Below are positions 28,948 to 60,482 of a DNA stretch of 64,000 bases, piece after piece. Source of the stretch: a virus. Its lineage: Duplodnaviria > Heunggongvirae > Uroviricota > Caudoviricetes. The stretch is taken from positions 5,513 through 69,512 of the IMG/VR virus record IMGVR_UViG_3300028388_003891; one strand, given 5' to 3'. The notes beneath the pieces are model-generated. The model was not told the origin of the DNA and ran no database searches. It was given only the letters and a program-made list of their open reading frames with translations. Made by a program: the position numbers and the translations under genes. Every line of letters starts with the position of its first letter. Within the stretch, counting starts at the first letter, position 1.

Positions 28948-29468
28948 TGAGTCTGCGTAATATAGCCCTTTCCACCAATCCAGCAGAGTTGTCTCATACT
29001 GAAGAGGATGATGTTCAGCCAAATGCTGTCGACATACGTCTCGATAAAGTGTGGCAAATTTCCAACGAGACGTTTACCCTCAGTGATAGTCACAAGGGGC
29101 ATCGTGGGTCCGAAGAGCTGTCGTTTACCCGTCATTTCCCCGACCATGAAGGCGAATGGATCGATCTATATCCAGGCAGCTATGAGTTTACCGCTAGAGG
29201 TACTGTGCTAGTTCCGCCTGGGTTCGCTGGGTGGGTAGTTACTCGAAGCACACTGAACCGTAATGGTGTCTTCATAACATCCGGCCTGTACGATAGCGGC
29301 TATCATGGAGTAATGGCCGGCGTAATACATGTATCTTGCGGTCCCTTTCTGGTTCAGCGAGGAACACGCATTGGTCAGTTTATACTTGTCGACGCTGAAA
29401 CATCTCATCAGTACGATGGCGATTACGGTTTGGGTAAAAAGCACGATGATAAGTACACGACTGCGTAG
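28947..29468 (+). CDS. dCTP deaminase / dUTPase-fold protein
   Basis: 'QPNAVDIRLD', 'VPPGFAGWVVTRSTLNRNGV', 'SGLYDSGYHG' and 'RIGQFIL' blocks characteristic of the Dcd/Dut beta-barrel. Its TAG stop (29466-29468) lies inside the following tRNA. Confidence 0.6.
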   Translation: MSLRNIALSTNPAELSHTEEDDVQPNAVDIRLDKVWQISNETFTLSDSHKGHRGSEELSFTRHFPDHEGEWIDLYPGSYEFTARGTVLVPPGFAGWVVTRSTLNRNGVFITSGLYDSGYHGVMAGVIHVSCGPFLVQRGTRIGQFILVDAETSHQYDGDYGLGKKHDDKYTTA

Positions 29469-29535
29469 CACAATCTGGTAGTGCGCTGAACTCTAAATTC
29501 ATGAGATAACGGTTCAAATCCGTTCGCAGTCACCA
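29459..29535 (+). tRNA. tRNA with anticodon CUA (amber-suppressor-like), CCA encoded
   Basis: Acceptor GACUGCG/CGCAGUC, D arm GCAC-AAUCUGGUA-GUGC, anticodon arm CUGAA-CUCUAAA-UUCAU (C27.U43 mismatch), T arm AACGG-UUCAAAU-CCGUU, A73-CCA. Confidence 0.5.
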
Positions 29536-31089: not shown

Positions 31090-31457
31090 TTGCATTTGCT
31101 GGTGGGGCGTTCCATTAACGAAATTCGATGAAGCACAACGAACGGTGCTAAGGACGGGGGTTCGATTCCCCCCACCTCCACCAAAAAGCATACTCTTCCC
31201 GCGAAAGCGGTGCGATGGAAGTCGTCATAATCAACCAAGGGAGTATGCTTTTTGATGGGGGTGCACTGGCTTCGACTTGGACTTAATAGCTTGTGTGGAG
31301 AATAGGTGCGGAAGCTACCTTAAACGCAACAAAGTAAAAAAGTGACGCAGCTAATGATGCTGTGTATGATGTGGCTCTAGCAGCCTGATCATACTGGGGA
31401 TTGACTATCCTTATTATCCAATAAGTCCGGGCAGGTTAAACCTGCCCGTTTTAGTTT
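31090..31457 (+). ncRNA. ssrA: Two-piece (circularly permuted) tmRNA gene: acceptor piece first, coding piece second
   Basis: Acceptor piece ends ...GGACGGGGGUUCGAUUCCCCC-CACCUCC-A-CCA at 31174. The coding piece starts at 31257 with GGGGGUG, which pairs with CACCUCC. The coding-piece head GGGGGUGCACUGGCUUCGAC resembles the tmRNA 5' head GGGGCUGAUUCUGGAUUCGAC. An in-frame tag ORF GCA GCU AAU GAU GCU GUG UAU GAU GUG GCU CUA GCA GCC UGA (31348-31388) encodes AANDAVYDVALAA. The 82-nt intervening segment forms a 13-bp hairpin. Terminator at 31427-31456. Confidence 0.75.
31427..31456 (+). terminator. Rho-independent terminator closing the tmRNA coding piece
   Basis: CCGGGCAGG-TTAAA-CCTGCCCG hairpin followed by a TTTTAGTTTT run. 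Confidence 0.65.
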
Positions 31458-31553
31458 TCTAATTGTAAACGGCCCCTTCTGTTGAATTACGTTTGATAGA
31501 TACGTGACTGTATGGTTGCTGAAAAACAGCAATCCTTTGAAATGGAGATCATT

Positions 31554-50112: not shown

Positions 50113-50170
50113 AGTCCCCCTGATGAGTCTTATCGGAGACGAAACGCAAAGCTAAAGTAGCGTCGGGGAA
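50113..50170 (+). ncRNA. Hammerhead ribozyme 1 (type I, open stem I); predicted cleavage between 50164 and 50165
   Basis: GUCCCC-CUGAUGA-GUCU[UAUCGG]AGAC-GAAA-CGC[AAAGCUAAAGUA]GCG-UC^GGGGA. All core nucleotides are present (C3-A9, G12-A14, A15.1-U16.1, C17). Confidence 0.7.
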
Positions 50171-50275: not shown

Positions 50276-50361
50276 CGCGGGATATACAAGCGGTCAACGT
50301 GATAGGGCTCATAACCCTATACCTTAGTGTTTCGTGGGTTCGAATCCCACTCCCGCAACCA
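50276..50361 (+). tRNA. tRNA-fMet-like (anticodon CAU), initiator features, unusual 14-nt variable region
   Basis: C1.A72 mismatch (CGCGGGA/UCCCGCA), anticodon stem with three G-C pairs (UAGGG-CUCAUAA-CCCUA), T arm GUGGG-UUCGAAU-CCCAC, A73-CCA. Confidence 0.55.
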
Positions 50362-50991
50362 AATTAACAGGCTGCCTTTCACATAGCCTGTTTTGACCGG
50401 CCCCTGTTTTTCCTCCTCCTTTTCGCAGGGGCCGGTCACCCTCTCCCCCGTTGCCCTCAATCTGACATTAAGAGATAATGTCTATGTTGAATTGAGGAGG
50501 CACCAATGAGCAAATACATTGTTTTCCAAATCGAAGTGACCCGCGCCATGGCCGACAAGATCGAGGTGTGATCGACATCAGAGAGTCGATAATGCCGACC
50601 CACGTCACACTGGCGATTGAAGACGGCCGCCTGATGGTCGTCGACGGCAGTGGGTATGACTTCATCATTGAGGAAGAAGATGAAACACAATCCAGTAGCT
50701 AAACACGCACACAAGTTCAACAAATGCGCCAAGCATGTTGACCGTAAGGCGCGTTCTAAGCGAGGATATCGCAAACACAGGAGAATTGATAATGGGTGTT
50801 GAGAACACAAATGTGGATACCAAAGAGCTCATGGTCGAGATTGATCTTGAACTTGGATCACTTGCGGCGCGGATCGCAACCGGCCTAACGTACAGCGAAA
50901 TCGTCGCGTTCGTTGAAATGATTGATAGCGAGGTATCCGACACCGAGTTTACGGACCAACTGATTAACGCCGTCCTACGCCTCAATGATTA

Positions 50992-51045
50992 ACTGCCCTG
51001 ATGAGTCTTACAGGAGACGAAACGCGCTGATAGCGCGTCGGCAGA
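50992..51045 (+). ncRNA. Hammerhead ribozyme 2 (type I); cleaves between 51039 and 51040, exactly at the tRNA-Tyr 5' end
   Basis: AACUGCC-CUGAUGA-GUCU[UACAGG]AGAC-GAAA-CGCGC[UGAUA]GCGCG-UC^GGCAGAG. Stem I is formed by the upstream CUGCC and the tRNA 5' acceptor strand GGCAG. Confidence 0.75.
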
Positions 51046-51121
51046 GTACACCCGTAACTGGTAGCGGCCCGCACTGTAACTGCGCATAACGTTGGGGGTT
51101 CGAATCCCTCCTCTGCCACCA
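51040..51121 (+). tRNA. tRNA (anticodon GUA, Tyr-type) with short variable region
   Basis: Acceptor GGCAGAG/CUCUGCC-A-CCA, anticodon arm (C)CGCA-CUGUAAC-UGCG(C), T arm GGGGG-UUCGAAU-CCCUC. D arm poorly paired. Confidence 0.55.
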
Positions 51122-51136
51122 AATTGAAAGGAGTTT

Positions 51137-51499
51137 GTGATGAATAAACGCTTCACGATTATCGCTGCGATAGTGATAGGCATCGGTAGTTTGTTTACTC
51201 TTTACGAAGGGGTCAAAGCTATCCGGCAGTATGCGTGGAACCATGAGGTTGTTGACGCTCGTCCCGTCGGTCCCGTTCGCACTGAGCAACGATTGATCGA
51301 ATGTGAGTATACAGGAATATGCTCTCGCTTTGATCCGCTGAACGGCGAGATGAGAACGGGGTTATCATCCTTTTGTCGCGGTCACCGTCCGGTCGTTGCT
51401 CGCATACAAGATGTGCAAGAGACGCTTCGTAACGGCGAGCAACGAATTCGAGAAGAGATAATGAGTCGCACAATCGTCGAGGGCGTAGCATGCAGATGA
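51137..51499 (+). CDS. Hypothetical membrane-anchored protein
   Basis: 120 aa with N-terminal TM helix. RBS AAAGGAG. Confidence 0.35.
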   Translation: MMNKRFTIIAAIVIGIGSLFTLYEGVKAIRQYAWNHEVVDARPVGPVRTEQRLIECEYTGICSRFDPLNGEMRTGLSSFCRGHRPVVARIQDVQETLRNGEQRIREEIMSRTIVEGVACR

Positions 51500-51533
51500 G
51501 CAAAGACGTAACCAAAGAGATTCTCAAAACGAA

Positions 51534-51607
51534 AGGGGATTAGCATAACGGTAGTGCGTCGGACTCTGACTCCGAATGTGGTGGTTCAATTCCACCATCC
51601 CCCGCCA
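51534..51607 (+). tRNA. tRNA-Gln (CUG)
   Basis: Anticodon arm UCGGA-CUCUGAC-UCCGA, T arm GGUGG-UUCAAUU-CCACC, acceptor AGGGGAU/AUCCCCC (A1.C72), G73-CCA. Confidence 0.6.
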
Positions 51608-51612
51608 ACAAA

Positions 51613-51688
51613 GCAGCTTTAGCAATGATGGTTCATGCGCTGGCCTGAAGTCCCAGATATCTCGGTTCGATCCCGAGGAGCTGCACCA
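51613..51688 (+). tRNA. tRNA-Phe (GAA)
   Basis: Acceptor GCAGCUU/GAGCUGC, anticodon loop CUGAAGU with C31.C39 mismatch, T arm CUCGG-UUCGAUC-CCGAG, A73-CCA. Confidence 0.55.
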
Positions 51689-51708
51689 AACAACAAAGGC
51701 GATGAGCA

Positions 51709-51969
51709 ATGTATGCAGTTCCCGAACGGTTTGATGTCCAGGCGCTTGGACGCACGATTACAGTGGTCTCCACGGCGAAGCCAGAAGATGGCGTGTATCA
51801 ATTGTGCGTAGAGATAGATGGCGAAATGGTACAGCTCGATACCTCGGTGCGAATAGAAGGACAGGAACTCTCATATATGATTCACGAGGAGGGGTATCAC
51901 GACATCTTGTTCCGTCTGGTTGCAGACGCAATTGAAGAACAGATGGGCCGTTCAGAAGCAAACAGCTAA
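51709..51969 (+). CDS. Hypothetical acidic protein
   Basis: 86 aa. Stop abuts tRNA 51971. Confidence 0.35.
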   Translation: MYAVPERFDVQALGRTITVVSTAKPEDGVYQLCVEIDGEMVQLDTSVRIEGQELSYMIHEEGYHDILFRLVADAIEEQMGRSEANS

Positions 51970-51970
51970 A

Positions 51971-52048
51971 GCGCCTGTAGCCCAATCAGGTAGAGGCAGC
52001 GGCTTTAAACCCCGTTCAGTGTGGGTTCGATCCCCTCCAGGCGCACCA
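51971..52048 (+). tRNA. tRNA with Leu anticodon UAA but class-I architecture (5-nt variable loop)
   Basis: Acceptor GCGCCUG/CAGGCGC, D stem GCC/GGC, anticodon arm GCGG(C)-UUUAAAC-(C)CCGU, T arm GUGGG-UUCGAUC-CCCUC, A73-CCA. Confidence 0.5.
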
Positions 52049-52082
52049 ACATCGGTTGACGACAACACGCTGGTAAGGGACA

Positions 52083-52301
52083 ATGAGTCTTTTGGAGGAT
52101 AAAACAATGGGTGAACGAACAATTCCTGCTCCAACAGAGCATCACTTCAGCTTTGCGACGGCAGTGGTCGATAATATGGTTCGCAACTGTGGAATCACAA
52201 GCTCCGGCGAAGACATCGATAAACTTAAAGACGCGATGGTTTCGTGCATTGCCCACCGTGACGCAGAGATCCTGTGGCTGCGCAAACTGGTGCATCCGTG
52301 A
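52083..52301 (+). CDS. Hypothetical protein
   Basis: 72 aa with RBS GGAGGA. Confidence 0.35.
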   Translation: MSLLEDKTMGERTIPAPTEHHFSFATAVVDNMVRNCGITSSGEDIDKLKDAMVSCIAHRDAEILWLRKLVHP

Positions 52302-52603
52302 TGTTGTACACTCCAGATAGATGGGTGTTGCTGGAAATCGAGCCGTACAAGTTGTACAAAGTGCTGGCGGGGTGGAATGGTGGTTATCTTTCGGCGGACG
52401 AATGGCGGATCAACTCCGGCATTAAAAGTCTGACCGATGAAGGCCAATATTTCACAGCAACAGGACACAGCGGCAGTGAATACCGTTTGTACAAGGATGC
52501 AGAGGGGTTCAATAAGATCAGCGCAGATGTGCTGTACAACCTCCAGAATGCTTATCCCCATATCGTCACTGTTTCTGCTGAACAATATTTTACGCGGGTG
52601 TAG
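52302..52603 (+). CDS. Hypothetical protein (start at the Met following the upstream stop)
   Basis: 100 aa. Ends with a TAG inside tRNA-Gly. Confidence 0.35.
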
Positions 52604-52669
52604 CTCAGTTGGTAGAGCATCTGGTTGCCAATCAGAAGGCCGTGGGATCGTGACCCATCACCCGCTCCA
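52594..52669 (+). tRNA. tRNA-Gly (GCC) with non-canonical T loop AUCGUGA
   Basis: Acceptor GCGGGUG/CACCCGC, D arm GCUC-AGUUGGUA-GAGC, anticodon arm UCUGG-UUGCCAA-UCAGA, U73-CCA. Overlaps the TAG stop of the upstream ORF. Confidence 0.65.
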
Positions 52670-52803
52670 AATTCTTGAATATGGAATGAGGAGAACTTAG
52701 TGAACAAACTTCGTAATCCGTACGATTCAAGGCAAGCGCCATCTGGGCGCGAATCTAAACAAAACGAACAACCCAGCCCATACGACGCGAGTGGTGTTCG
52801 TCG

Positions 52804-53100
52804 TTGGCTCGAACGGAAAACGAGGCGAAAACATCAAAAGTGAGATTGCTAATTTTTGCAGCGGTGCTGCTTTGTACAGCCTGCTCGACTACGCCGCCAG
52901 GAGTGACAAAACAGTGCGTACGTTACGAGTACAACAACGACTGGGAAATTGTTCAAATGGGCGGCTTCTACAGAGTAAAAGCGCCTCAGATGATATGCCG
53001 AAAATGGATGTATTATGAAAGTAGCAGTGACCGGTACGCGCCACGGAATGACTCGTCCACAAAGACAAATGGTGATGTCGACGATCCACCAGTAGACTGA
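52804..53100 (+). CDS. Small lipoprotein
   Basis: Signal peptide with lipobox 'LLCTAC'. Confidence 0.4.
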   Translation: MARTENEAKTSKVRLLIFAAVLLCTACSTTPPGVTKQCVRYEYNNDWEIVQMGGFYRVKAPQMICRKWMYYESSSDRYAPRNDSSTKTNGDVDDPPVD

Positions 53101-53101
53101 G

Positions 53102-53470
53102 TTGCATCAAGGATGCTGCAAAGGCGTTGATCGCGAATGCTACCTAATGGCAGCAGACAATCCAGACTACGACATAACGATTTACTCGTACCCACCAATT
53201 AATGATCACTATGCGATCAAGTGCCTCGGTCATGTCAATTACAAGCCACAGCCGTTCCTTGTACGCGATCGTGCTCTGGTAGATGCGGCGGATATTCTGC
53301 TATCGATGCCACTTACTGATTACGAGACATTTCGCAGTGGTACATGGTACACTACACGCTATGCTCTGCAGCAGGACAAGCCTGTCGTACTGATTCAACC
53401 TAACGGCACTAGTGTGCCTGCTGATGAAATTGAGAGATACTTACTACCTGGAAAATGGGGTGAAAGGTAA
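53102..53470 (+). CDS. Hypothetical protein (nucleoside 2-deoxyribosyltransferase-like fold?)
   Basis: 'ALVDAADILLSMP...TWYTTRYALQQDKPVVLI'. Weak call. Confidence 0.25.
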   Translation: MHQGCCKGVDRECYLMAADNPDYDITIYSYPPINDHYAIKCLGHVNYKPQPFLVRDRALVDAADILLSMPLTDYETFRSGTWYTTRYALQQDKPVVLIQPNGTSVPADEIERYLLPGKWGER

Positions 53471-54435
53471 TGGAATTCATCAAATACAGCTCGATTGAGA
53501 ATCACTACCGTGAGAAGGTTGTCGACTGGTATCGTGAAAATGGATTAGAAAACGTCGGATGGATCTTGACGGAGAAGATCCATGGCGCTAACTTTTCTTT
53601 CTGGTGCAACAGCAGCGAAGTCAAGGTCGCATCTCGTAACCAATGGGTCGACAGCACATTCTATAGCTGTCAGGACATCATCGACGCGTACACGCCCGTT
53701 GTGCTAGAGCTCGCTACTTTCTTCCCCAACAGCACTGTAGCTGTGTATGGGGAGCTGTACGGACCCGGTATTCAGAAGGGGGTCAATTACGGCGACAAAA
53801 AAGATTTCGTTGCCTTCGACATTCGAGTTGACGGATACTTCCTAGATCGTAATAAAGTACATGTGTACATCGCTGGTGCAAACCAGCTGACATTACAAAA
53901 GCACGGTCAGAGGTCCACCTTGATGGACGTTGTCCCTATTGTTGGCTCGACAGTGTCACTAACACAAGTGCTTGAGTTTGATAACGAGTTTGTATCTGTG
54001 CTTGGCCGTCTCAATGGTGTCGACGACGATGCCAACCTTGCTGAGGGATTCATTGCAACGCCAGTCGGCAAAGCGTACCAACGCATTGGCAGCGACCGTG
54101 TGATCCTCAAATCGAAAGGTGAAAAGTGGACAGAGAAAAGCAAGAAGGTAAAGACGCCTCGTGCTCCTGTTACTGAGCACCCACTGACATCAACGGTTGA
54201 GCAGTATGTCAACACCAACCGTGTCGATGCTGTCACAAGTAAGATGGGCCCGTTGACTCCAAAGGACTTTGGTCGGATCATTAGGGCTGTTTGTGATGAT
54301 GTCATTGATGACATGGTGAAGGACGGTGATGTTCGTAGCTGCTGGCGCGATGACGAAGAGACGAAAGACCTTGGCAAGGTTGTTAACAAAGTGGTAGTGC
54401 CTTTCCTCAAGAAAGAGCTGCTACCGACGTTGTAA
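53470..54435 (+). CDS. RNA ligase, Rnl2 family
   Basis: Nucleotidyltransferase motif I 'TEKIHGANF' (compare T4 Rnl2 'EKIHGTNF'). 321 aa. Embedded in the tRNA/ribozyme array. Confidence 0.65.
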   Translation: MEFIKYSSIENHYREKVVDWYRENGLENVGWILTEKIHGANFSFWCNSSEVKVASRNQWVDSTFYSCQDIIDAYTPVVLELATFFPNSTVAVYGELYGPGIQKGVNYGDKKDFVAFDIRVDGYFLDRNKVHVYIAGANQLTLQKHGQRSTLMDVVPIVGSTVSLTQVLEFDNEFVSVLGRLNGVDDDANLAEGFIATPVGKAYQRIGSDRVILKSKGEKWTEKSKKVKTPRAPVTEHPLTSTVEQYVNTNRVDAVTSKMGPLTPKDFGRIIRAVCDDVIDDMVKDGDVRSCWRDDEETKDLGKVVNKVVVPFLKKELLPTL

Positions 54436-54452
54436 CACGCTTGGCAGTGTAG

Positions 54453-54497
54453 GCGGGTGAGGAACCACGAACTGGATCCAGTGACCCCGCCGTTTTA
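54453..54497 (+). terminator. Terminator-like hairpin after the RNA ligase gene, leading into a TATAAAT box before tRNA-Glu
   Basis: GGCGGG...CCCGCC stem with an internal CTGGATCCAG palindrome, then GTTTTATAAAT. Confidence 0.4.
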
Positions 54498-54505
54498 TAA
54501 ATTAC

Positions 54506-54582
54506 GTCCCTATAGGTTAACAGGTTAGACCTTCAGGCTTTCAACCTGGCAGAGTGGGGTTCGAGTCCCCCTAGGGACACCA
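54506..54582 (+). tRNA. tRNA-Glu (UUC)
   Basis: Acceptor GUCCCUA/UAGGGAC, anticodon arm UCAGG-CUUUCAA-CCUGG, T loop UUCGAGU, A73-CCA. Confidence 0.7.
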
Positions 54583-54586
54583 AATT

Positions 54587-54686
54587 ACGTGCTTGGTGTA
54601 ATGCGTAGCATACCAAGACCGAACTGCGCGAACGCAGATGTAGGCAATCAAAATGGGAGGTCCAGGTTCGAATCCTGGGGCACGTA
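54587..54686 (+). other. tRNA-like element (about 100 nt) with canonical T arm and 3' acceptor strand but no recognisable anticodon arm; no CCA
   Basis: 5' ACGUGCU pairs with 3' GGCACGU-A. T arm CCAGG-UUCGAAU-CCUGG. Interior consists of two hairpins (CUUGGUGU...ACCAAG and CUGCG-CGAA-CGCAG). Confidence 0.3.
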
Positions 54687-54695
54687 ACTAATAAA

Positions 54696-54772
54696 CTGGG
54701 TATAGGGCAGTCTGGTAGCCTACCTCCCTTGGAAGGAGGATGTCGATGGTTCAAATCCATCTACCCAGACCA
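54696..54772 (+). tRNA. tRNA-Pro (UGG)
   Basis: C1-G72 acceptor CUGGGUA/UACCCAG, anticodon arm CCUCC-CUUGGAA-GGAGG, T arm GAUGG-UUCAAAU-CCAUC, A73-CCA. Confidence 0.75.
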
Positions 54773-54924
54773 ATTTTGGCTTGTACGCAAGCGGTGACGG
54801 AAGCAGCTTGCAGAATGTGTTGAACGTCAGATGTGGGTAATACTAGAATCGCTATCTAGAACTAAGACATAGCCACGATGCCGGAGATCCGTGGGGTGCG
54901 TCGTGGCGGCCAAAATTCAACAGA

Positions 54925-55000
54925 GGTGCCGTAGCTTAACGGGGAAAGGCTCAGACTGTCAATCTGAGAGATACGGGTTCGAGACCCGTCGGTACCGCCA
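54925..55000 (+). tRNA. tRNA-Asp (GUC)
   Basis: Anticodon arm UCAGA-CUGUCAA-UCUGA, T arm ACGGG-UUCGAGA-CCCGU, acceptor GGUGCCG/CGGUACC, G73-CCA. Confidence 0.7.
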
Positions 55001-55018
55001 AACTAAAAGGAGAAGAAA

Positions 55019-55267
55019 ATGGACGACAACCAGTTGTATTCCATCAGTTGTATTAGCTTCTTTTTTACGATATGCGTCATAGCGTTTACAATCGGATCTT
55101 GTAATACCAGAGAAGCAGAGCAGGAAACGGAGAGGTATCGAATCGAAATGGATCGATACGATCCTGGTTCGATTGACTATTTGGAAGCGCAGTGTATCGA
55201 GAAGTCGGGACTCCATGCTTCGATACTTCGGTTCTGTGAAGAAGCGCTGGAGAAAGCAAACGGATAA
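55019..55267 (+). CDS. Small membrane protein inside the tRNA array
   Basis: 82 aa with RBS AAGGAG and one TM helix. Confidence 0.4.
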   Translation: MDDNQLYSISCISFFFTICVIAFTIGSCNTREAEQETERYRIEMDRYDPGSIDYLEAQCIEKSGLHASILRFCEEALEKANG

Positions 55268-55268
55268 T

Positions 55269-55345
55269 GCGCCCCTACGCAAATTGGCAAAGCGGCTGGC
55301 TTTAGAAGCCGGTGTTTCTCGGTTCGAGTCCGAGGGGGCGTACCA
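55269..55345 (+). tRNA. tRNA with Leu anticodon UAG, class-I architecture
   Basis: Acceptor GCGCCCC/GGGGCGU (G1.U72), anticodon arm CUGGC-UUUAGAA-GCCGG, 5-nt variable loop, T arm CUCGG-UUCGAGU-CCGAG, A73-CCA. Confidence 0.5.
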
Positions 55346-55351
55346 AACAAT

Positions 55352-55428
55352 GGGTCGTTAGCTTAATTGAGTAAAGCAGCAGGCTTTTAACCTGCCAGAT
55401 CTGAGTTCGAGTCTCAGGCGGCCTACCA
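55352..55428 (+). tRNA. tRNA-Lys (UUU)
   Basis: D arm GCUU-AAUUGAGUA-AAGC, anticodon arm GCAGG-CUUUUAA-CCUGC, T arm CUGAG-UUCGAGU-CUCAG, A73-CCA. Confidence 0.7.
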
Positions 55429-55568
55429 AATCAATATGGCGCTAACTCGTGCCCCGACCACCAGATCGGACTACAATGCTGGTAGGCACCTAGGCCTATA
55501 CTCGCCCCAGTCGAGTGAACGTGTGACAGTTACGACGACACGACCATAATGGAACTGGGACAAATTCT

Positions 55569-55644
55569 TGGCATGTAGCATTGAAGGTAATGCGCCGCAC
55601 TGTTAATGCGGAGGAATCCGGTTCGATCCCGGACGTGCCAGCCA
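55569..55644 (+). tRNA. tRNA-Asn (GUU)
   Basis: Acceptor UGGCAUG/CGUGCCA, D arm GCAU-UGAAGGUA-AUGC, anticodon arm CCGCA-CUGUUAA-UGCGG, T arm UCCGG-UUCGAUC-CCGGA, G73-CCA. Confidence 0.7.
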
Positions 55645-55910
55645 ATTATGGTCCGTTGCATTGGGATGCATCCCTTTGCTGATAAACGAAGGGGAGTAAG
55701 TCGGGCACGCGACCGACCGGAAGCCGGATATAAAGCTGTCATCTGACATGGTGGCAGTCGGACCGCCATACAATGGGGCGAAGTGACGTAGACGCGCGTT
55801 AAGAACAGCCGATCTGAGCCCCACCATAAATAGGTCAACACACTACAGGTTGACAACATGATAGCTTTCAAGGACCATATTCAAGAATCAAGAACAGCTA
55901 AAGTTTTAAC

Positions 55911-55984
55911 GCCCGGTTAGCTCAATGGGAGAGCTACTGCCTTACAAGCAGAGGACGGTGGTTCGATTCCATCACTGGGTACCA
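55911..55984 (+). tRNA. tRNA-Val (UAC)
   Basis: D arm GCUC-AAUGGGA-GAGC, anticodon arm (A)CUGC-CUUACAA-GCAG(A), T arm GGUGG-UUCGAUU-CCAUC, A73-CCA. Confidence 0.65.
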
Positions 55985-56016
55985 AGAATAGTGGAGGGCT
56001 AATGCCCATCTGCGAG

Positions 56017-56084
56017 CTCCACAACGACTGGCAAATGGCGCTGGGGTGTCCCGGAACGGAGGTTCGATTCCTCCCAGTTCGTAC
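56017..56084 (+). other. Truncated tRNA-like element (acceptor-like stem, one hairpin, canonical T arm), no CCA
   Basis: T arm GGAGG-UUCGAUU-CCUCC followed by CAGUUCG-U. Imperfect 5' partner CGACUGG. Preceded by a GUGGAG...CUCCAC nested hairpin at 55991-56023. Confidence 0.25.
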
Positions 56085-56245
56085 TACAACACCGGTTAGT
56101 GATACGAGTAACGATTAAGTTACAGTTGTGGAGCGGTACTATTAGGAATGGCTACAGCATCTAATTACTACGCAGCCAAAGAAAGCCATTCCGTAACAAT
56201 TAAGAGTGTTTGCAGCAACTAATCTTCCATGCTAAGGACGAGGCC

Positions 56246-56302
56246 GCAGGTTCGAATCCTGCTCCCCGCCATCGACGGTGGGGGTAGCTCAGCGGTAGAG
56301 CG
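56246..56302 (+). other. tRNA half-fragments: T arm plus 3' acceptor (CCUGC-UCCCCGC-C) followed 7 nt later by a tRNA 5' half (GGUGGGGG-UA-GCUC-AGCGGUA-GAGC-GC)
   Basis: The 3' strand UCCCCGC(C) upstream pairs perfectly with GGUGGGG downstream, a permuted or fragmented arrangement. The 5' half resembles tRNA-Ala. Confidence 0.3.
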
Positions 56303-56328
56303 CGTAGAAATACACTCTGTTTATTTTT

Positions 56329-56400
56329 GGGGGTGCCGTATGGGACGGACTTAGCCCTTGCAAGGCTGATGGTCGGGATCGTTACCCGATACCTCCACCA
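56329..56400 (+). tRNA. tRNA-Ala-like (UGC) with G3.U70 but a degenerate D arm; possibly a disrupted gene
   Basis: Acceptor GGGGGUG/UACCUCC (G3.U70), anticodon arm UAGCC-CUUGCAA-GGCUG, T arm UCGGG-AUCGUUA-CCCGA, A73-CCA. Preceded by a U-run and the tRNA 5' half fragment. Confidence 0.4.
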
Positions 56401-56406
56401 AACATT

Positions 56407-56484
56407 CACCGTGTAGCTCAGTCTGGTCAGAGCGTTCGCTTTGGAAGCGTAGGGCCACTGGTTCGAATCCAGTCATGGTGACCA
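56407..56484 (+). tRNA. tRNA-Pro (UGG), second copy with different sequence
   Basis: C1-G72 acceptor CACCGUG/CAUGGUG, D arm GCUC-AGUCUGGUCA-GAGC, anticodon arm UUCGC-UUUGGAA-GCGUA (one mismatch), T arm ACUGG-UUCGAAU-CCAGU, A73-CCA. Confidence 0.55.
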
Positions 56485-56664
56485 AATTGGTTCGTGGACT
56501 ACCGTAAGACGCCTACGTTTAGGTGCCGCGACCCCACGAACAAGTCGTGGGACGACAAGCGCGAATGTGTTATATACTTCACACGGACGGTGGCGTCTGT
56601 TGTTGTGAAAGTCGTTAACTAGCGTTGAGCTGATCACTCTAGTCCCGCGGCGGCGCTATTAAAT

Positions 56665-56740
56665 GGGTCGTTAGCTTAACTGGCAAAGCTCCGGTCTCCA
56701 AAACCGGCAGATCGCGGTTCGAAGCCGTGGCGGCCCGCCA
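56665..56740 (+). tRNA. tRNA-Trp (CCA)
   Basis: Anticodon arm CCGGU-CUCCAAA-ACCGG, D arm GCUU-AACUGGCA-AAGC, T arm CGCGG-UUCGAAG-CCGUG, G73-CCA. Confidence 0.7.
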
Positions 56741-56817
56741 AACAGCTCATAAGGTGAGCAGTTGCGACTGGTACATATTCGCCGCCACGCCATATTTTCT
56801 CTTGCCGGAAGATAAAC

Positions 56818-56893
56818 GCTCCTAAAGCATTGCTGGCCGATGCACGGGTCTTGTAAGCCTGAGAACTCAGTTCGATTCTGAGTAGGAGCACCA
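56818..56893 (+). tRNA. tRNA-Thr (UGU)
   Basis: Acceptor GCUCCUA/UAGGAGC, D arm GCAU-UGCUGGCCG-AUGC, anticodon arm CGGGU-CUUGUAA-GCCUG, T arm CUCAG-UUCGAUU-CUGAG, A73-CCA. Confidence 0.65.
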
Positions 56894-56897
56894 ACAT

Positions 56898-56973
56898 GCC
56901 CTCAAAGCATTGCCGATTGATGCGCGAGTTTCGTAAACTTGATAACTGCGTTTGATTCGCAGTGAGGGCTCCA
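56898..56973 (+). tRNA. tRNA-Thr (CGU)
   Basis: Acceptor GCCCUCA/UGAGGGC, anticodon arm CGAGU-UUCGUAA-ACUUG, T arm CUGCG-UUUGAUU-CGCAG, U73-CCA. Confidence 0.65.
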
Positions 56974-57022
56974 ATTGAGCAACTGCAGAATGTCTGCGGT
57001 GATATACAGGTAGGACGCATAA

Positions 57023-57099
57023 GCCGCAGTGACCCAATTGGCAGAGGTGCCAGTTTCAAAAGCTGGATGTTGTCGGTTCGACTCCGACCTGCGGTACCA
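57023..57099 (+). tRNA. tRNA with Leu anticodon CAA, class-I architecture
   Basis: Acceptor GCCGCAG/CUGCGGU, anticodon arm CCAGU-UUCAAAA-GCUGG, 5-nt variable loop, T arm GUCGG-UUCGACU-CCGAC, A73-CCA. Confidence 0.5.
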
Positions 57100-57184
57100 A
57101 ACTACGACGTCGAGCTCAAGATAACACCGGGGACCGGCGTGTGGGAAGGCTATTTGGAATACGGACTGCTTATAAAATGGTTAT

Positions 57185-57259
57185 AGGGATGTAGCGCAAT
57201 TGGTAGAGCAGCGGAGTTTGATTCCGCAGATTCCGGTTCGAATCCGGACATCCCTTCCA
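57185..57259 (+). tRNA. tRNA-Gln (UUG)
   Basis: Acceptor AGGGAUG/CAUCCCU, anticodon arm GCGGA-GUUUGAU-UCCGC, T arm UCCGG-UUCGAAU-CCGGA, U73-CCA. TATAAAAT box about 15 nt upstream. Confidence 0.65.
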
Positions 57260-57347
57260 AGGACAGTAAAATGAACGTACTACGAGAGTACGAACACCAC
57301 AACAAGCTGGTACTCAGTATTTTAATGGATGCTTTAGCTGATCCACC

Positions 57348-57422
57348 GGGCCGGTAGCTTAATGGTAGAGCAGTGCCCTCATAAGGCAACGGTTGTGGGT
57401 TCGATTCCCTCCCGGCCCACCA
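57348..57422 (+). tRNA. tRNA-Met (CAU), elongator type, or Ile2 if lysidinylated
   Basis: Acceptor GGGCCGG/CCGGCCC, anticodon arm (G)UGCC-CUCAUAA-GGCA(A), T arm GUGGG-UUCGAUU-CCCUC, A73-CCA. Confidence 0.6.
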
Positions 57423-57517
57423 GTTACGTAACGCAGGCCGCCCCTGCGACACTTGGGTAGCGCCCAAAACCCCTCTCGAGGACTAGAGAGGCAAAACCAA
57501 AGGTCAACCAATTCAAT

Positions 57518-57593
57518 GCCCTCGTAGCTTAACGGATAGAGCGACTCGCTACGAACGAGTTAGGTGGGAGTTCAATTCTCTCCGAGGGTGCCA
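57518..57593 (+). tRNA. tRNA-Arg (ACG)
   Basis: Acceptor GCCCUCG/CGAGGGU, anticodon arm ACUCG-CUACGAA-CGAGU, T arm GGGAG-UUCAAUU-CUCUC, G73-CCA. Confidence 0.7.
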
Positions 57594-57739
57594 AACGTAG
57601 TTCGTGTGAGCAACCGGTTGTCTGCAGACACCAACGGGAAACGAACTGGCCGGGACAGTGAGATGCTCACACATCACTGATCCACCAATTATGGGGTGAG
57701 GGCGCGCGACTAAGGAATACCTGATCCCCACCATACAAC

Positions 57740-57815
57740 GACGCGATGGCTCGAGTGGTTAGGCCGCCGCCTGCAAAGCGGAAGAATGTCGGTTCGATTC
57801 CGACTCGCGTCTCCA
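57740..57815 (+). tRNA. tRNA-Cys (GCA)
   Basis: Acceptor GACGCGA/UCGCGUC, anticodon arm GCCGC-CUGCAAA-GCGGA (27.43 mismatch), T arm GUCGG-UUCGAUU-CCGAC, U73-CCA. Confidence 0.6.
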
Positions 57816-57821
57816 AACAAT

Positions 57822-57915
57822 GGAAGGTAATGCAGTGCCGATGGTGGCGCGACTGGCCTTGAAAACCAGGTCCCGGCTAAAACCGGGTGGGGTTCGACTC
57901 CTCTGCCTTCCGCCA
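57822..57915 (+). tRNA. tRNA-Ser (UGA), class II with long variable arm
   Basis: Acceptor GGAAGGU/GCCUUCC, anticodon arm CUGG(C)-CUUGAAA-(A)CCAG, variable arm CCCGG-CUAAAA-CCGGG, T loop UUCGACU, G73-CCA. Confidence 0.7.
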
Positions 57916-57932
57916 ACATAGGAGATGGCAAC

Positions 57933-58190
57933 ATGGAAAAGTTTGCAGTGCTTGCCATTACGGCAGGCTTAATCGGTTTGGGGCTAATCCTCATCGCCCT
58001 TGCAATGTCGAAAATTTCAATCCCAGAATGGTTCTTCCGCACACAGGATGGTGTGCGTATTGGAGTGCGTACAGACGTGTTGGGCAACACGAAAGTGCGA
58101 GTTGACTTTGCTGACAAAACAACACGCGCGCTGATCTACAAACGAGCCAAAGCTGTTAACGACCGTGTGACTATGAGTGCACTGCGTTGA
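57933..58190 (+). CDS. Small membrane protein
   Basis: 85 aa with RBS AGGAG. One TM helix (AVLAITAGLIGLGLILIALA). Confidence 0.4.
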   Translation: MEKFAVLAITAGLIGLGLILIALAMSKISIPEWFFRTQDGVRIGVRTDVLGNTKVRVDFADKTTRALIYKRAKAVNDRVTMSALR

Positions 58191-58340
58191 CCTGACAGCC
58201 GGGATTGGAGACAATAAGTACTGATTTGGGCCATTTCGAAAATTGCTGAATTGCTATGTGTGGCCCCGTTTTGCGGCTATATAGAAAGAAGACCGAGGAG
58301 CATAAGCGTAAAATCGCTGAATCTCTACGGAATAGAAAAC

Positions 58341-58417
58341 GCAGGACTGGTGTTTAACGGCTAGCATCTCTGGCTTCCAACCAGAAGGTAGGAGTTCGAG
58401 TCTCCTGTTCTGCTCCA
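58341..58417 (+). tRNA. tRNA-Gly (UCC)
   Basis: Acceptor GCAGGAC/GUUCUGC, anticodon arm UCUGG-CUUCCAA-CCAGA, T arm AGGAG-UUCGAGU-CUCCU, U73-CCA. Confidence 0.65.
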
Positions 58418-58437
58418 AATAATGTCGAGGACAGATC

Positions 58438-58776
58438 GTGGATAATCTGGTTGGAAACCGTTACAATCTGTATGGTGTGTGGGACGACCACATCAAACTG
58501 AACGATACCGTGTACCGTATCGACGTAGACCCGTTTGATGGCTATCGATCCTACCTCAATGGGGTTACGGCGGTACTGCAGACGCCAGAGATGGTGTTTT
58601 CGACGTTGCCCATAGCTGAAATCGTGGTGCACGAAGATCGCACGGAGTGCAAAAACGGATACATCTTGAAAGACGACCTAGGTCACGTGTGGCTTGAGCT
58701 CGGTACCGATCACCACGACAGTTGGTATCCGTATGTGTACATGCGGTATAATCCCAAAGAACCAGATAACGTATGA
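58438..58776 (+). CDS. Hypothetical protein
   Basis: 112 aa. Confidence 0.35.
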   Translation: MDNLVGNRYNLYGVWDDHIKLNDTVYRIDVDPFDGYRSYLNGVTAVLQTPEMVFSTLPIAEIVVHEDRTECKNGYILKDDLGHVWLELGTDHHDSWYPYVYMRYNPKEPDNV

Positions 58777-58777
58777 T

Positions 58778-58855
58778 GGTGGTCGTAGCTCAATTGGTTA
58801 GAGCGTCGGTTTGTGACACCGAAGGCCGAGGGTTCGATCCCCTCCGATCACCCCA
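58778..58855 (+). tRNA. tRNA-His (GUG) with encoded G-1 pairing with C73
   Basis: G-1 at 58778, acceptor GUGGUCG/CGAUCAC, D arm GCUC-AAUUGGUUA-GAGC, anticodon arm UCGGU-UUGUGAC-ACCGA, T arm GAGGG-UUCGAUC-CCCUC, C73-CCA. Confidence 0.75.
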
Positions 58856-58931
58856 AATTAACGACGACTGCAGCCCGATATACAGAGAAGAATAAATACT
58901 GTCCCACAATTCAATTTATTAACACCGATGA

Positions 58932-59008
58932 GCCCTCGTAGCTTAACTGGATAGAGCAACGGAATTCTACTCCGTTTGATGTGGGTTCGAATCCTACCGA
59001 GGGTGCCA
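58932..59008 (+). tRNA. tRNA-Arg (UCU)
   Basis: Acceptor GCCCUCG/CGAGGGU, anticodon arm ACGGA-AUUCUAC-UCCGU, T arm GUGGG-UUCGAAU-CCUAC, G73-CCA. Confidence 0.7.
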
Positions 59009-59010
59009 AT

Positions 59011-59298
59011 TTGAAATACGATCTGCCAGCATTATATGATGAGCTGAGCCCAAAACAAAGACGAGACGTCCGCCTACAATATGTTGAGCAACAACAAGGC
59101 AAGTGCTATTGGTGCAACCATGACCTCAACCAGGATCCTCCAATTTCGATACTTAATGAATGGATCAACTGGGACCTATTTCCCGACGGGTTCCGAAAAC
59201 ATCCGATCCATCTGCAGCACGACCACGATACGGGACTGACGGAGGGCGCCGTGCATATGAGATGTAATGCCTATATGTGGCAGTATCGTGGACGGTAA
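59011..59298 (+). CDS. Small HNH-like endonuclease (CxxC...HxxH motifs); TTG start just after the tRNA
   Basis: 'CYWCNHDL...HLQHDHDTGLTEGAVHMRCNAY'. The ORF-track ATG start at 58981 lies inside the tRNA, so a TTG with a GAGGGTG RBS was used. Confidence 0.35.
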   Translation: MKYDLPALYDELSPKQRRDVRLQYVEQQQGKCYWCNHDLNQDPPISILNEWINWDLFPDGFRKHPIHLQHDHDTGLTEGAVHMRCNAYMWQYRGR

Positions 59299-59348
59299 TA
59301 TATCTGTATAGTAGAATTTGGGCTAATATACCGATATAGTAGAATTAT

Positions 59349-59423
59349 GGCTTCATAGCTCAATGGCAAGAGCACTCGGCCGATAACCGGGAGATCTAAG
59401 TTCGATTCTTAGTGAAGCTACCA
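59349..59423 (+). tRNA. tRNA-Ile (GAU)
   Basis: Acceptor GGCUUCA/UGAAGCU, D arm GCUC-AAUGGCAA-GAGC, anticodon arm CUCGG-CCGAUAA-CCGGG, T arm CUAAG-UUCGAUU-CUUAG, A73-CCA. Confidence 0.7.
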
Positions 59424-59428
59424 AACAC

Positions 59429-59503
59429 GCCCCTGTAGTACAACCGGTAGTACACCACCTTGGTAAGGTGGAGAACGTGGGTCGGGACCACGCTGGGGCA
59501 CCA
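59429..59503 (+). tRNA. tRNA-Thr (GGU) with non-canonical T loop GUCGGGA
   Basis: D arm GUAC-AACCGGUA-GUAC, anticodon arm CCACC-UUGGUAA-GGUGG, T arm CGUGG-GUCGGGA-CCACG, acceptor GCCCCUG/CUGGGGC (one mismatch), A73-CCA. Confidence 0.6.
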
Positions 59504-59510
59504 AACTAAA

Positions 59511-59588
59511 GCCTGAGTACCCCAATTGGCAGAGGGGCGAGATCGAGAATCTCGTTAGGTGTGGGTTCGAGTCCCACCTCAGGTACCA
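59511..59588 (+). tRNA. tRNA with Leu anticodon GAG, class-I architecture
   Basis: Acceptor GCCUGAG/CUCAGGU, D arm CCCC-AAUUGGCAGA-GGGG, anticodon arm CGAGA-UCGAGAA-UCUCG (C33), T arm GUGGG-UUCGAGU-CCCAC, A73-CCA. Confidence 0.5.
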
Positions 59589-59869
59589 ACGCGTGCAACC
59601 TGTGTTACGTTGCAAACGTGCACACGGTCATCCACCTTGATGCGCAATTGCGCTCCGACGTTGATCTGCTGGTCATTCGTATCGAGCTCGACGTCACTAT
59701 TTGGACGCAGCTTTAACGTGCAATCAGATTCGACGACCCAGTCGCCTCGTCGGTCAGTCTGAACGAGTACGACTGACGGGGCAAACCACACTGAGCGAAT
59801 CTCCGTTGGGTGTGGTGCGGCAAAGGCCGCTGTTGACAAAAGTGCTAATGCTAGTAGAAGGTATTTCAC
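59579..59869 (-). CDS. Small secreted protein (signal peptide MKYLLLALALLSTAAFA)
   Basis: 96 aa on the minus strand. The hairpin at 59590-59625 may terminate it. Confidence 0.4.
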   Translation of the reverse strand: MKYLLLALALLSTAAFAAPHPTEIRSVWFAPSVVLVQTDRRGDWVVESDCTLKLRPNSDVELDTNDQQINVGAQLRIKVDDRVHVCNVTQVARVGT

Positions 59870-59930
59870 AATAGGCTCCTATGAGTGTATATAAGGTATA
59901 TATGCTCTATACATCTTCTCGGAATACATT

Positions 59931-60080
59931 ATGAGTAAAAAGGCGAAAGATTCACAGCTCCTCATCAAAGTTAACAAAGAGGACAAGAAAGCCTTCATTG
60001 AAATATGTGAATCGCAAGACACGACTGCAAGTCGTGAGATCCGCAGATTCATTTCACGCACTATCAAAAAACATGGGTGA
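59931..60080 (+). CDS. Small ribbon-helix-helix-like protein (49 aa, not in ORF track)
   Basis: 'KVNKEDKKAFIEICESQDTTASREIRRFI' beta-strand/helix pattern typical of Arc/CopG/ParD-like RHH proteins. 7 nt upstream of the next ORF. Confidence 0.3.
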   Translation: MSKKAKDSQLLIKVNKEDKKAFIEICESQDTTASREIRRFISRTIKKHG

Positions 60081-60086
60081 TGTATT

Positions 60087-60383
60087 ATGACGAACATTAA
60101 GCGGGACGACGTGCAACAGTCCTTTACGAACCGCCGTAACGAAATCGCGAACAGGCTTGAGGCATCTCTCTTTGGGGCACGTAACGAAGACATTACGATG
60201 AGCCCTCGCGCCCTTGAAGCGGTTGAGGTGTGCGCGGAGGGGATCGATACGATGGGCAAGTACATTGACTATTTGGAAGCTGCCCTACATAAGGCGCGCA
60301 CACGTGTAAAGGACCTCGAGCGCATCACAGCATCACCACAAGACGTCACTGTTGTCAAAGATGGCGCGCAGGTGCGACTATAG
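60087..60383 (+). CDS. Hypothetical protein downstream of the RHH gene
   Basis: 98 aa. Ends with a TAG abutting tRNA-Ser. Confidence 0.3.
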   Translation: MTNIKRDDVQQSFTNRRNEIANRLEASLFGARNEDITMSPRALEAVEVCAEGIDTMGKYIDYLEAALHKARTRVKDLERITASPQDVTVVKDGAQVRL

Positions 60384-60390
60384 CTATATT

Positions 60391-60482
60391 GGAAGGTTGC
60401 CAGAGAGGTCGATTGGGGCTCCCTGCTAAGGAGTTGACCCTCTTATGAGGGTCCGAGAGTTCGAATCTCTCACCTTCCGCCA
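60391..60482 (+). tRNA. tRNA-Ser (GCU), class II
   Basis: Acceptor GGAAGGU/ACCUUCC, anticodon arm GCUCC-CUGCUAA-GGAGU, variable arm GACCCUC-UUAU-GAGGGUC, T arm GAGAG-UUCGAAU-CUCUC, G73-CCA. Confidence 0.7.

Follow-up and report, generated by a model that had tools for sequence, protein, structure and literature searches.

The analyzed window, a stretch of 64,000 nucleotides, belongs to an 87-kb IMG/VR viral record (47% complete) that represents a T4-like myovirus, with a portal protein matching Portal_T4 (E-value 8e-170) and further matches to a gp18-type sheath protein, a UvsW-like helicase, a family B polymerase and a gp41-like helicase. Judging by the portal, the closest deposited genome is that of Phage C48C1 (Kyanoviridae; 61% identity), the next relatives, at about 50% identity, being pelagiphages, Methylophilales phages and cyanophages. 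A large tRNA array spans positions 50276–60482 of the window (ARAGORN), and within it a hammerhead ribozyme motif directly precedes a tRNA-Tyr gene. The features of this region, in window coordinates, are the following:

50115–50169, + strand: paralogous hammerhead, named HHR1 in an earlier sequence-only reading of this DNA (Rfam RF00163, 26.8 bits)
50650–50802, + strand: small basic ORF of 50 aa, DUF7230 (Pfam PF23876, E-value 6.2e-9)
50735–50992, + strand: ORF of 85 aa (ORF list; no Pfam match)
50993–50997, + strand: 5' strand of stem I, CUGCC (sequence)
50998–51004, + strand: catalytic core C3–A9, CUGAUGA (sequence; invariant in 14 homologs)
51005–51018, + strand: stem II hairpin, 5 bp with the 4-nt loop ACAG (sequence, alignment, folding)
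51019–51021, + strand: core G12–A13–A14, GAA (sequence; invariant in homologs)
51022–51038, + strand: stem III hairpin from A15.1 to U16.1, 7 bp with the loop GAU (sequence)
51039, + strand: C17, the cleavage-site nucleotide (hammerhead numbering)
51040–51044, + strand: dual-use GGCAG, 3' strand of stem I and tRNA acceptor nucleotides 1–5 (sequence, folding)
51040–51121, + strand: tRNA-Tyr, anticodon GUA, with encoded CCA (Rfam RF00005, 40.4 bits)
51137–51499, + strand: ORF of 120 aa outside any known family (ORF list, Pfam)
53470–54435, within the tRNA array: Rnl2-family RNA ligase (PF09414, 1.2e-17; PF18043, 2.9e-13)

The genes around the hammerhead are tightly packed. The DUF7230 ORF of the window lies 190 nt upstream of the ribozyme, and in five contigs (L302, L158, L303, L305 and L143) its homologs, identified by tblastn, stop 2–3 nt before the hammerhead, which supports both shared descent and co-transcription. 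In the window, the TAA stop codon of the 85-aa ORF (50990–50992) is set directly against stem I, implying a co-transcript of mRNA, ribozyme and tRNA. On the other side, an AAGGAG sequence about 15 nt 3' of the tRNA-Tyr is followed by the start codon of the 120-aa ORF, which places the tRNA inside an operon-like run of genes.

The ribozyme motif is a complete type I hammerhead at 50993–51039, with stem I completed by nucleotides 1–5 of the tRNA-Tyr. Stem I is open and stems II and III are closed hairpins, which is the type I topology, and the hammerhead numbering puts the predicted scissile bond between 51039 and 51040. The catalytic core that the sequence-only reading had described as complete is borne out base by base (CUGAUGA, GAA and C17), and so are the composition of stem I, CUGCC paired with the GGCAG of the tRNA, and the GUA anticodon of the adjacent tRNA. 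The helices that it had given for the other two stems exist but are longer: its 6-bp stem III extends to 7 bp when the A15.1–U16.1 pair is counted (A15.1 plus CGCGCT, loop GAT, AGCGCG plus U16.1), and its GUCU/AGAC stem II, of the GUCUU/GGAGAC type, consists of those four Watson-Crick pairs and a fifth, U.G pair. The A15.1–U16.1 pair, A51022–U51038 in the window, is A–U in 14 of 14 homologs, and position H17 is C or A in all of them and never G.

The Rfam Hammerhead_1 model (RF00163) aligns with 50993–51044 from end to end but yields 18.3 bits, short of the gathering score (34); the homologs score 21.8–22.6 bits with this model, the seed of which comes mostly from other lineages, whereas a covariance model of their own group gives its members 50–77 bits. 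By its defining features, as read from the nucleotide sequence, the element is a type I hammerhead, and the Rfam score threshold is the only test that went against it. A scan for the structural motif (core plus three helices) produced exactly two matches in the 64-kb window, namely, the copy at 50993 and the paralog at 50115–50169, and zero matches in 200 dinucleotide-preserving shuffles of the window. No match to an HDV-family Rfam model was found in 50900–51200 at E-values up to 10. The paralog has a stem II nearly identical to that of the tRNA-linked copy, and a covariance model (hereafter R1) built from an alignment of 14 distinct junction sequences (A1) assigns 67.6 bits to this copy, which is outside the training set. 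Its predicted cut, at 50164/50165, is away from any tRNA, so the family evidently serves other purposes as well.

The tRNA-Tyr gene (body, 51040–51118, followed by CCA up to 51121) scores well above the RF00005 gathering score of 29, has the anticodon loop CUGUAAC and contains G1–C72, A73 and G34–U35–A36, all evident in the sequence. It is nevertheless atypical: ARAGORN does not call a tRNA at 51040, and in the Infernal alignment, there are 3 inserted nucleotides after position 9, before the D stem. The variable region of about 9 nt has no stem, such that the class II combination of a long arm and a 2-nt connector is not found here; long variable arms do occur in the ribozyme-linked relatives from L158, L302, L303, L305 and L126. 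A whole-record ARAGORN run combined with a regular-expression scan showed that no other tRNA in the 87-kb record carries the anticodon GUA; the tRNA set of the record is otherwise near-complete. As the sole tRNA-Tyr of a tRNA-rich record, it is presumably used.

To look for the same arrangement elsewhere, we employed a pattern that prescribes the core, the stem II subtype found here and, 62–92 nt after GAAA, the T-loop of a tRNA. Because only the core, stem II and the T-loop are fixed, the pattern selects neither for a particular tRNA nor for the sequences of stems I and III, and yet every one of its matches, in 5 IMG/VR and 11 JGI metagenome stretches, turned out to be a junction of a hammerhead with tRNA-Tyr (GUA) with the predicted cut at +1. 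A complete census of IMG/VR with a generic hammerhead core (58 + 83 stretches) was then followed by a stricter script. Altogether, 17 hammerhead/tRNA-Tyr junctions were identified in 14 contigs of uncultivated phages, 16 of them distinct and one (L313) truncated at the contig end, and the predicted cut coincides with tRNA +1 in 17 of 17. One candidate, L231, in which a hammerhead is present and a tRNA is not, was dropped as a false positive. R1 recovers copies outside its training set, including the truncated L313 (51.9 bits) and, in L307, a variant with an extra U in the core (50.6 bits). The junctions all reside within dense phage tRNA arrays (16–23 tRNAs per locus), in which short spacers set the other tRNAs apart and none of these has a ribozyme. 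Most of the contigs carry a single hammerhead in the locus searched, whereas a 347-kb jumbo phage (L037/L306) and L307 contain tandem ribozyme-tRNA units. As the junction sequences share descent, they represent fewer than 17 independent events.

The arrangement is far from being the rule for phage tRNA-Tyr, in agreement with the sequence-only reading, which did not know it as standard in T4-like tRNA clusters. Of 65 phage tRNA-Tyr genes that share the D-loop motif, 61 have no hammerhead, and R1 found no match in 60 loci with ribozyme-less tRNA-Tyr genes, nor any in five deposited genomes (Phage C48C1, S-CBWM1, S-SCSM1, Salicola phage SCTP-2 and Pseudomonas phage Astolliot). GTDB species genomes contained zero matches to the pattern of this stem II subtype, and in a blastn search of INPHARED with three ribozyme-tRNA units, the tRNA parts alone were matched. 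The recurrence of such junctions in relatives, which that reading had proposed to check, is confirmed, and its predicted cut at the tRNA 5' end is supported by the junction counts, by the covariation and by the tRNA-His case described below. The cassette is inherited within a group of aquatic tRNA-rich phages, including T4-like myoviruses and jumbo phages, and appears tied almost exclusively to tRNA-Tyr.

The census adds two junctions with other tRNAs, tRNA-His in L166 and tRNA-Gly in L180. The hammerhead of L166 (39.3 bits with R1) is predicted to cut one base before the ARAGORN start of the tRNA-His, that is, directly upstream of G-1, the pairing partner of C73. In bacteria, G-1 belongs to mature tRNA-His, so that the cut falls at the true mature end, which argues against a ribozyme that is merely adjacent. 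The match in L180 is weaker (22.7 bits), and its predicted cut leaves one extra U on the tRNA-Gly.

The structure of the junction is strongly supported by covariation. In the A1 alignment, pairing is intact in 99.5% of the helix cells, and both partners vary in 10 of 15 pairs. Covariation scores 0.64, compared with 0.22 in shuffles, of which 0 of 500 reach 0.64; in the controls with slid partners, covariation is at most 0.15 and pairing at most 51%. Compensatory changes are present in all three helices, including four of the five outer pairs of stem III. Stem I is paired in 100% of the cases, with both-side changes in four of its five pairs, although it is formed by ten different pairs of strands (for example, CUGCC/GGCAG, CUACC/GGUAG, CCUGC/GCAGG, CUGGC/GCCAG and UUGCC/GGCAA), indicating that the upstream strand tracks the acceptor stem of the tRNA. 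The register of the junction is kept across tRNA bodies that have greatly diverged. As judged by this covariation, the junction is a natural design under selection.

The ribozyme-linked tRNAs score low throughout with Rfam (27.8–40.4 bits), and their tRNA-Tyr bodies are of at least four types; from this, we conclude that the tie to tyrosine is either old or has a functional reason. L307 encodes two canonical tRNA-Tyr (62 and 54 bits with Rfam) without a hammerhead and two atypical ones (35.5 and 31.6 bits), each with a hammerhead. This contig can be regarded as an internal control.

Folding predictions suggest when the cut would be made. For transcripts that end at tRNA nucleotide 7 or at nucleotide 61, the hammerhead is the minimum-free-energy fold (z = -3.0 for the transcript ending at nucleotide 7), whereas in the full precursor, nucleotides 1–7 pair with nucleotides 66–72 and the acceptor stem replaces stem I. 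Given that the hammerhead is the nascent fold and the acceptor stem belongs to the completed precursor, the predicted cleavage most likely occurs during transcription. The course of events that we envisage begins with the transcription of the DUF7230 ORF, the 85-aa ORF, the ribozyme, the tRNA and the next ORF as one RNA, in which the ribozyme would fold, as seen in the folding predictions, once tRNA nucleotides 1–5 emerge and pair with the upstream CUGCC. By the known hammerhead chemistry, transesterification after C17 would cut the RNA at 51039/51040, leaving a leader that ends in a structured hammerhead bearing a 2',3'-cyclic phosphate, and a tRNA that starts at G1 with a 5'-OH. The 5-bp stem I would then melt, with nucleotides 1–7 and 66–72 forming the stabler acceptor stem, such that the mature 5' end would arise without RNase P; the 3' end, just past the encoded CCA, would still depend on host nucleases. 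A phage kinase could phosphorylate the 5'-OH. Stem III base-pairs the leader up to position -2, so that the uncut precursor should, given the way bacterial RNase P binds leaders, be a poor substrate for this enzyme. Only about 60–70 nt are transcribed before the 3' strand of the acceptor is made, and with a time window this short, cleavage may be incomplete, in which case RNase P may finish the job.

Several details of stem I are compatible with this scheme. Stem I is 5 bp long in all but two cases (6 bp in those); lengthening it would need changes in the upstream strand alone. Two nucleotides upstream of stem I, there is a conserved A, and the other flank is formed by A6–G7 of the tRNA, a dinucleotide found in 16 of 17 ribozyme-linked tRNA-Tyr as opposed to 6 of 54 ribozyme-less phage tRNA-Tyr. 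Natural fast hammerheads need a tertiary contact between loop II and stem I. The short stem I and the flanking A and A6–G7 may reflect constraints imposed by product release and by a contact with loop II. Loop II shows 5–7 nt of complementarity to the upstream sequence in four members (L308, L103, L126 and the second L306 unit); this potential pseudoknot was not seen in the window or in most of the other members.

The preceding observations could also be accounted for if an active hammerhead had been selected for processing of the polycistronic transcript, in which case its role would be to provide the DUF7230/85-aa mRNA with a structured, cyclic-phosphate-capped 3' end or to uncouple the mRNA from the tRNA, and the 5' end of the tRNA would be a by-product that RNase P could equally make. 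The direct contact of the ribozyme with the DUF7230 ORF in five contigs and with the TAA codon in the window fits this explanation, as does the paralog at 50115–50169 that cuts away from a tRNA, and hammerheads flanking prophage genes have been proposed to shorten long phage transcripts into mRNAs (PMC3088659). However, mRNA processing alone needs neither a +1 cut in 17 of 17 tRNA-Tyr nor a cut at G-1 in tRNA-His, in L304, L307 and the second L037 unit the ribozyme is preceded by another tRNA instead of an ORF, and the pairing of the leader by stem III up to -2 should, judging from leader contacts, hinder RNase P. We consider selection for transcript processing, in either of these roles, to be improbable. 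That the motif arose by chance or is a relic without activity or present function is hardly credible: the Rfam score below the family threshold would be in line with this possibility, but the shuffles gave 0 matches in 200, none of the 14 aligned sequences departs from the core and each helix shows compensatory changes among them, and the junction stays in register across highly diverged tRNA bodies.

The remaining alternatives involve RNA ligases. The sequence-only reading correctly pointed to an Rnl2-family gene about 2.4 kb downstream: this gene, at 2.43 kb, encodes both the nucleotidyltransferase and the Rnl2-specific C-terminal domains (141.8 bits with NCBIfam TIGR02307, under the equivalog cut-off of 197). 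In addition, about 6 kb past the end of the window, an ORF for an AAA_33 P-loop kinase overlaps an Rnl1-family ligase ORF (G000:C1:75651–77010). RtcB and the Pnkp phosphatase domain (PNK3P) were not found in this 47%-complete record. Rnl2 requires 3'-OH and 5'-phosphate ends, which hammerheads do not make. Together with the kinase and Rnl1, the location of the Rnl2 gene inside the tRNA array might suggest that the 5'-OH is handed on purpose to phage RNA repair, ribozyme and ligase forming one system. Against this, in the 347-kb genome (94% complete) that carries two ribozyme-tRNA-Tyr units, neither RNA_ligase (PF09414) nor AAA_33 (PF13671) was matched, only one of the four other contigs tested (L126) has an RNA_ligase match, maturation of the 5' end does not require ligases, and tRNA-rich phages often carry tRNA-repair genes for unrelated reasons. 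We find such a repair system very unlikely; as a near-complete jumbo phage genome shows no match to the ligase or kinase family, the association is not conserved and we treat it as coincidental, so that the link between the ribozyme and Rnl2 implied in the sequence-only reading is not supported. The presence of RNA ligase genes in the record, of two same-strand hammerheads within the window and of tandem ribozyme-tRNA units in L037/L306 and L307 could also be read in terms of retrozyme- or viroid-like elements, with hammerheads bounding an RNA that is excised and circularized or mobilized; the window pair, spaced by 876 nt, or the L037 and L307 tandems would then supply a 5'-OH and a 2',3'-cyclic phosphate to a ligase. 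This appears exceedingly unlikely given that most contigs have one hammerhead in the locus searched, that RtcB, the type of ligase that joins such ends, was not found in the record, that Rnl1 and Rnl2 need healed ends, that hairpins and a U run follow a tRNA at 50362–50440, between the two ribozymes (by eye; the terminator scan was silent), and that no repeat or mobility signature was seen.

We therefore favor the view, which we hold to be likely on strong comparative evidence, that a functional, cis-acting type I hammerhead in the 5' leader makes the 5' end of pre-tRNA-Tyr. Because the same design recurs with compensating mutations, the 5' end of this tRNA is very probably made by its own transcript, and not by RNase P, which the hammerhead would replace at tRNA-Tyr. 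Going further, and much more tentatively, we suspect that a group of aquatic phages can form tRNA 5' ends naturally without RNase P, through a built-in hammerhead that takes the acceptor stem as its substrate helix, and that the 5'-OH or the independence from host RNase P is itself under selection; as part of this conjecture, the route would be selective, serving almost always tRNA-Tyr and once tRNA-His, including G-1. If this is the case, the possible gains are that atypical tRNA bodies poorly handled by RNase P would become usable or that the phage tRNA-Tyr would evade host nucleases that depend on a 5'-phosphate, or tRNA-targeting defenses. The 5' ends of tRNAs are held to be made by RNase P in nearly all cases, and a conserved natural cis-hammerhead that does the same job would, if real, represent a new role for the most studied small ribozyme. 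Little is known as yet about what hammerheads do in bacteria and phages (PMC6765202).

RNase P, which in bacteria consists of the M1 RNA and the C5 protein, is, like the hammerhead, an RNA catalyst that generates the +1 end or, in tRNA-His, the -1 end, but it acts in trans, with multiple turnover, by hydrolysis and leaves a 5'-phosphate, whereas the hammerhead acts in cis, with a single turnover, by transesterification, so that the tRNA receives a 5'-OH and the leader a 2',3'-cyclic phosphate (PMC6765202). Hammerheads of the same class have been described in intergenic regions of phages and prophages, several per locus, as in our window with its two copies, and a role in the processing of long transcripts has been proposed for them, with no tRNA junction described and the word tRNA confined to the title of a reference (Perreault et al. 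2011, PMC3088659); in the present case, unlike in those, one of the ribozyme helices is part of the tRNA itself. In the literature that we searched, including the main surveys of hammerheads, we found no description of a natural hammerhead at the 5' end of a tRNA; one 2026 paper places hammerheads 'adjacent to tRNAs in bacteriophages' and yet cites for this the work on the HDV-like theta ribozymes.

The theta ribozymes (Kienbeck et al. 2024, PMC10879173) are the closest precedent for the arrangement described here and its counterpart at the 3' end: they too are small self-cleaving ribozymes fused to phage tRNAs, discovered by comparative genomics in uncultivated Caudoviricetes and proposed to replace a host nuclease step. 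The theta ribozyme, however, is an HDV-like double pseudoknot at the 3' trailer of the tRNA, found in gut phages and mostly with suppressor tRNAs (PMC10879173), whereas the element studied here is a hammerhead at the 5' end, present in aquatic phages and mostly with tRNA-Tyr; the theta-ribozyme paper does not mention hammerheads (PMC10879173). If the hammerhead acts as we propose, it mirrors theta, and built-in RNA catalysts would let phages mature their tRNAs at the 5' as well as the 3' end. The same architecture, that is, a 5' ribozyme with stem I including tRNA nucleotides and a cut at +1, is known from engineered cis-hammerhead/tRNA cassettes (Fechter et al. 1998, in the summary of PMC9136035). 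Such fusions yield 5'-OH tRNAs that are fully active in aminoacylation, according to the account in PMC9136035, which cites Fechter et al. 1998. These cassettes are laboratory T7 designs, whereas the phage element is natural, conserved and located between phage genes; a directly testable system of about 130 nt, it supplies evolution-tested designs for ribozyme-tRNA expression cassettes.

Candidate hammerhead-tRNA junctions, in addition to that of tRNA-Tyr(GUA) in the window, are present in other uncultivated phage contigs (designated by L-numbers), with the tRNA genes belonging to three different specificities:

L166:12183-12324, minus strand, hammerhead fused to tRNA-His
L180:9975-10100, minus strand, hammerhead-like element by tRNA-Gly(UCC), 22.7 bits
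L307:769-1474, four tRNA-Tyr genes within 700 nt

In the tRNA-His fusion, the predicted cut falls directly 5' of G-1, so that the tRNA released by the ribozyme would carry its special 8-bp acceptor end. The predicted cut of the L180 element would leave one extra U 5' of tRNA-Gly(UCC); either this junction is imprecise or the two elements are neighbours by chance. Two of the four tRNA-Tyr genes in L307 are atypical and hammerhead-linked, the other two being canonical and free of a ribozyme; one of the two hammerheads in this locus contains an extra U 3' of the CUGAUGA core. Ribozyme-linked tRNAs nearly always have AAUU or AAAU (ACCAAAUU) directly 3' of the encoded CCA, both in the window (51119-51126) and at the equivalent position of 13 related loci, and this motif may be a common 3'-processing site.

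The neighbourhood of the tRNA-Tyr-linked ribozyme in the window includes a small ORF, a paralogous hammerhead and another tRNA:

50650-50802, very basic 50-aa ORF matching Pfam DUF7230
50115-50169, second hammerhead from the same family, with GUCUUAUCGGAGAC as its stem II
50276-50361, tRNA with anticodon CAU, 86 nt long, Rfam 45.3 bits

In five further contigs (L302, L158, L303, L305 and L143), homologues of the DUF7230 ORF stop 2-3 nt 5' of the hammerhead, so that DUF7230-hammerhead-tRNA-Tyr looks like a conserved cassette. The paralogous hammerhead scores 26.8 bits with Rfam and 67.6 bits with R1, our covariance model of tRNA-Tyr-linked hammerheads. There is no tRNA at its predicted cut (50164/50165); the predicted 3' product opens with an 8-bp hairpin (GGGGAAGA...UCUUCCCC), and the 111 nt that separate the cut from the next tRNA fold better than shuffled sequences (z = -2.2). 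The CAU tRNA shows initiator hallmarks, namely, a C1xA72 mismatch and three G-C pairs adjoining the anticodon loop, along with an unusually long variable arm, and is followed on its 3' side by two hairpins, the first with a U run.

Potential RNA-repair genes extend beyond the window, into the remainder of the 87-kb record (G000:C1):

G000:C1:75651-77010 (= L314:1447-2806), AAA_33 P-loop kinase ORF (163 aa) overlapping an Rnl1-family RNA ligase ORF (316 aa)

This pair adjoins a nicotinate phosphoribosyltransferase gene and, together with Rnl2 (window 53470-54435), looks like an RNA-repair set, with no Pnkp phosphatase domain recognisable in the record, which is 47% complete.

The window encodes further RNAs of the translation apparatus:

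29459-29535, amber suppressor tRNA (anticodon CUA), labelled 'Pyl' by ARAGORN, Rfam tRNA 65.8 bits
57822-57911, class II tRNA, anticodon UGA (Ser), missed by ARAGORN
31091-31479, phage tmRNA in permuted (two-piece) form, Rfam RF04321, 95.2 bits

The CUA tRNA is located far from the main tRNA array, and the sole match of the UGA tRNA, to the tRNA-Sec model, is sub-threshold (41.1 vs 47 bits). For the tmRNA, ARAGORN predicts a tag peptide. The two-piece form, typically seen in alphaproteobacteria and in some of the cyanobacteria, gives a hint as to the host.
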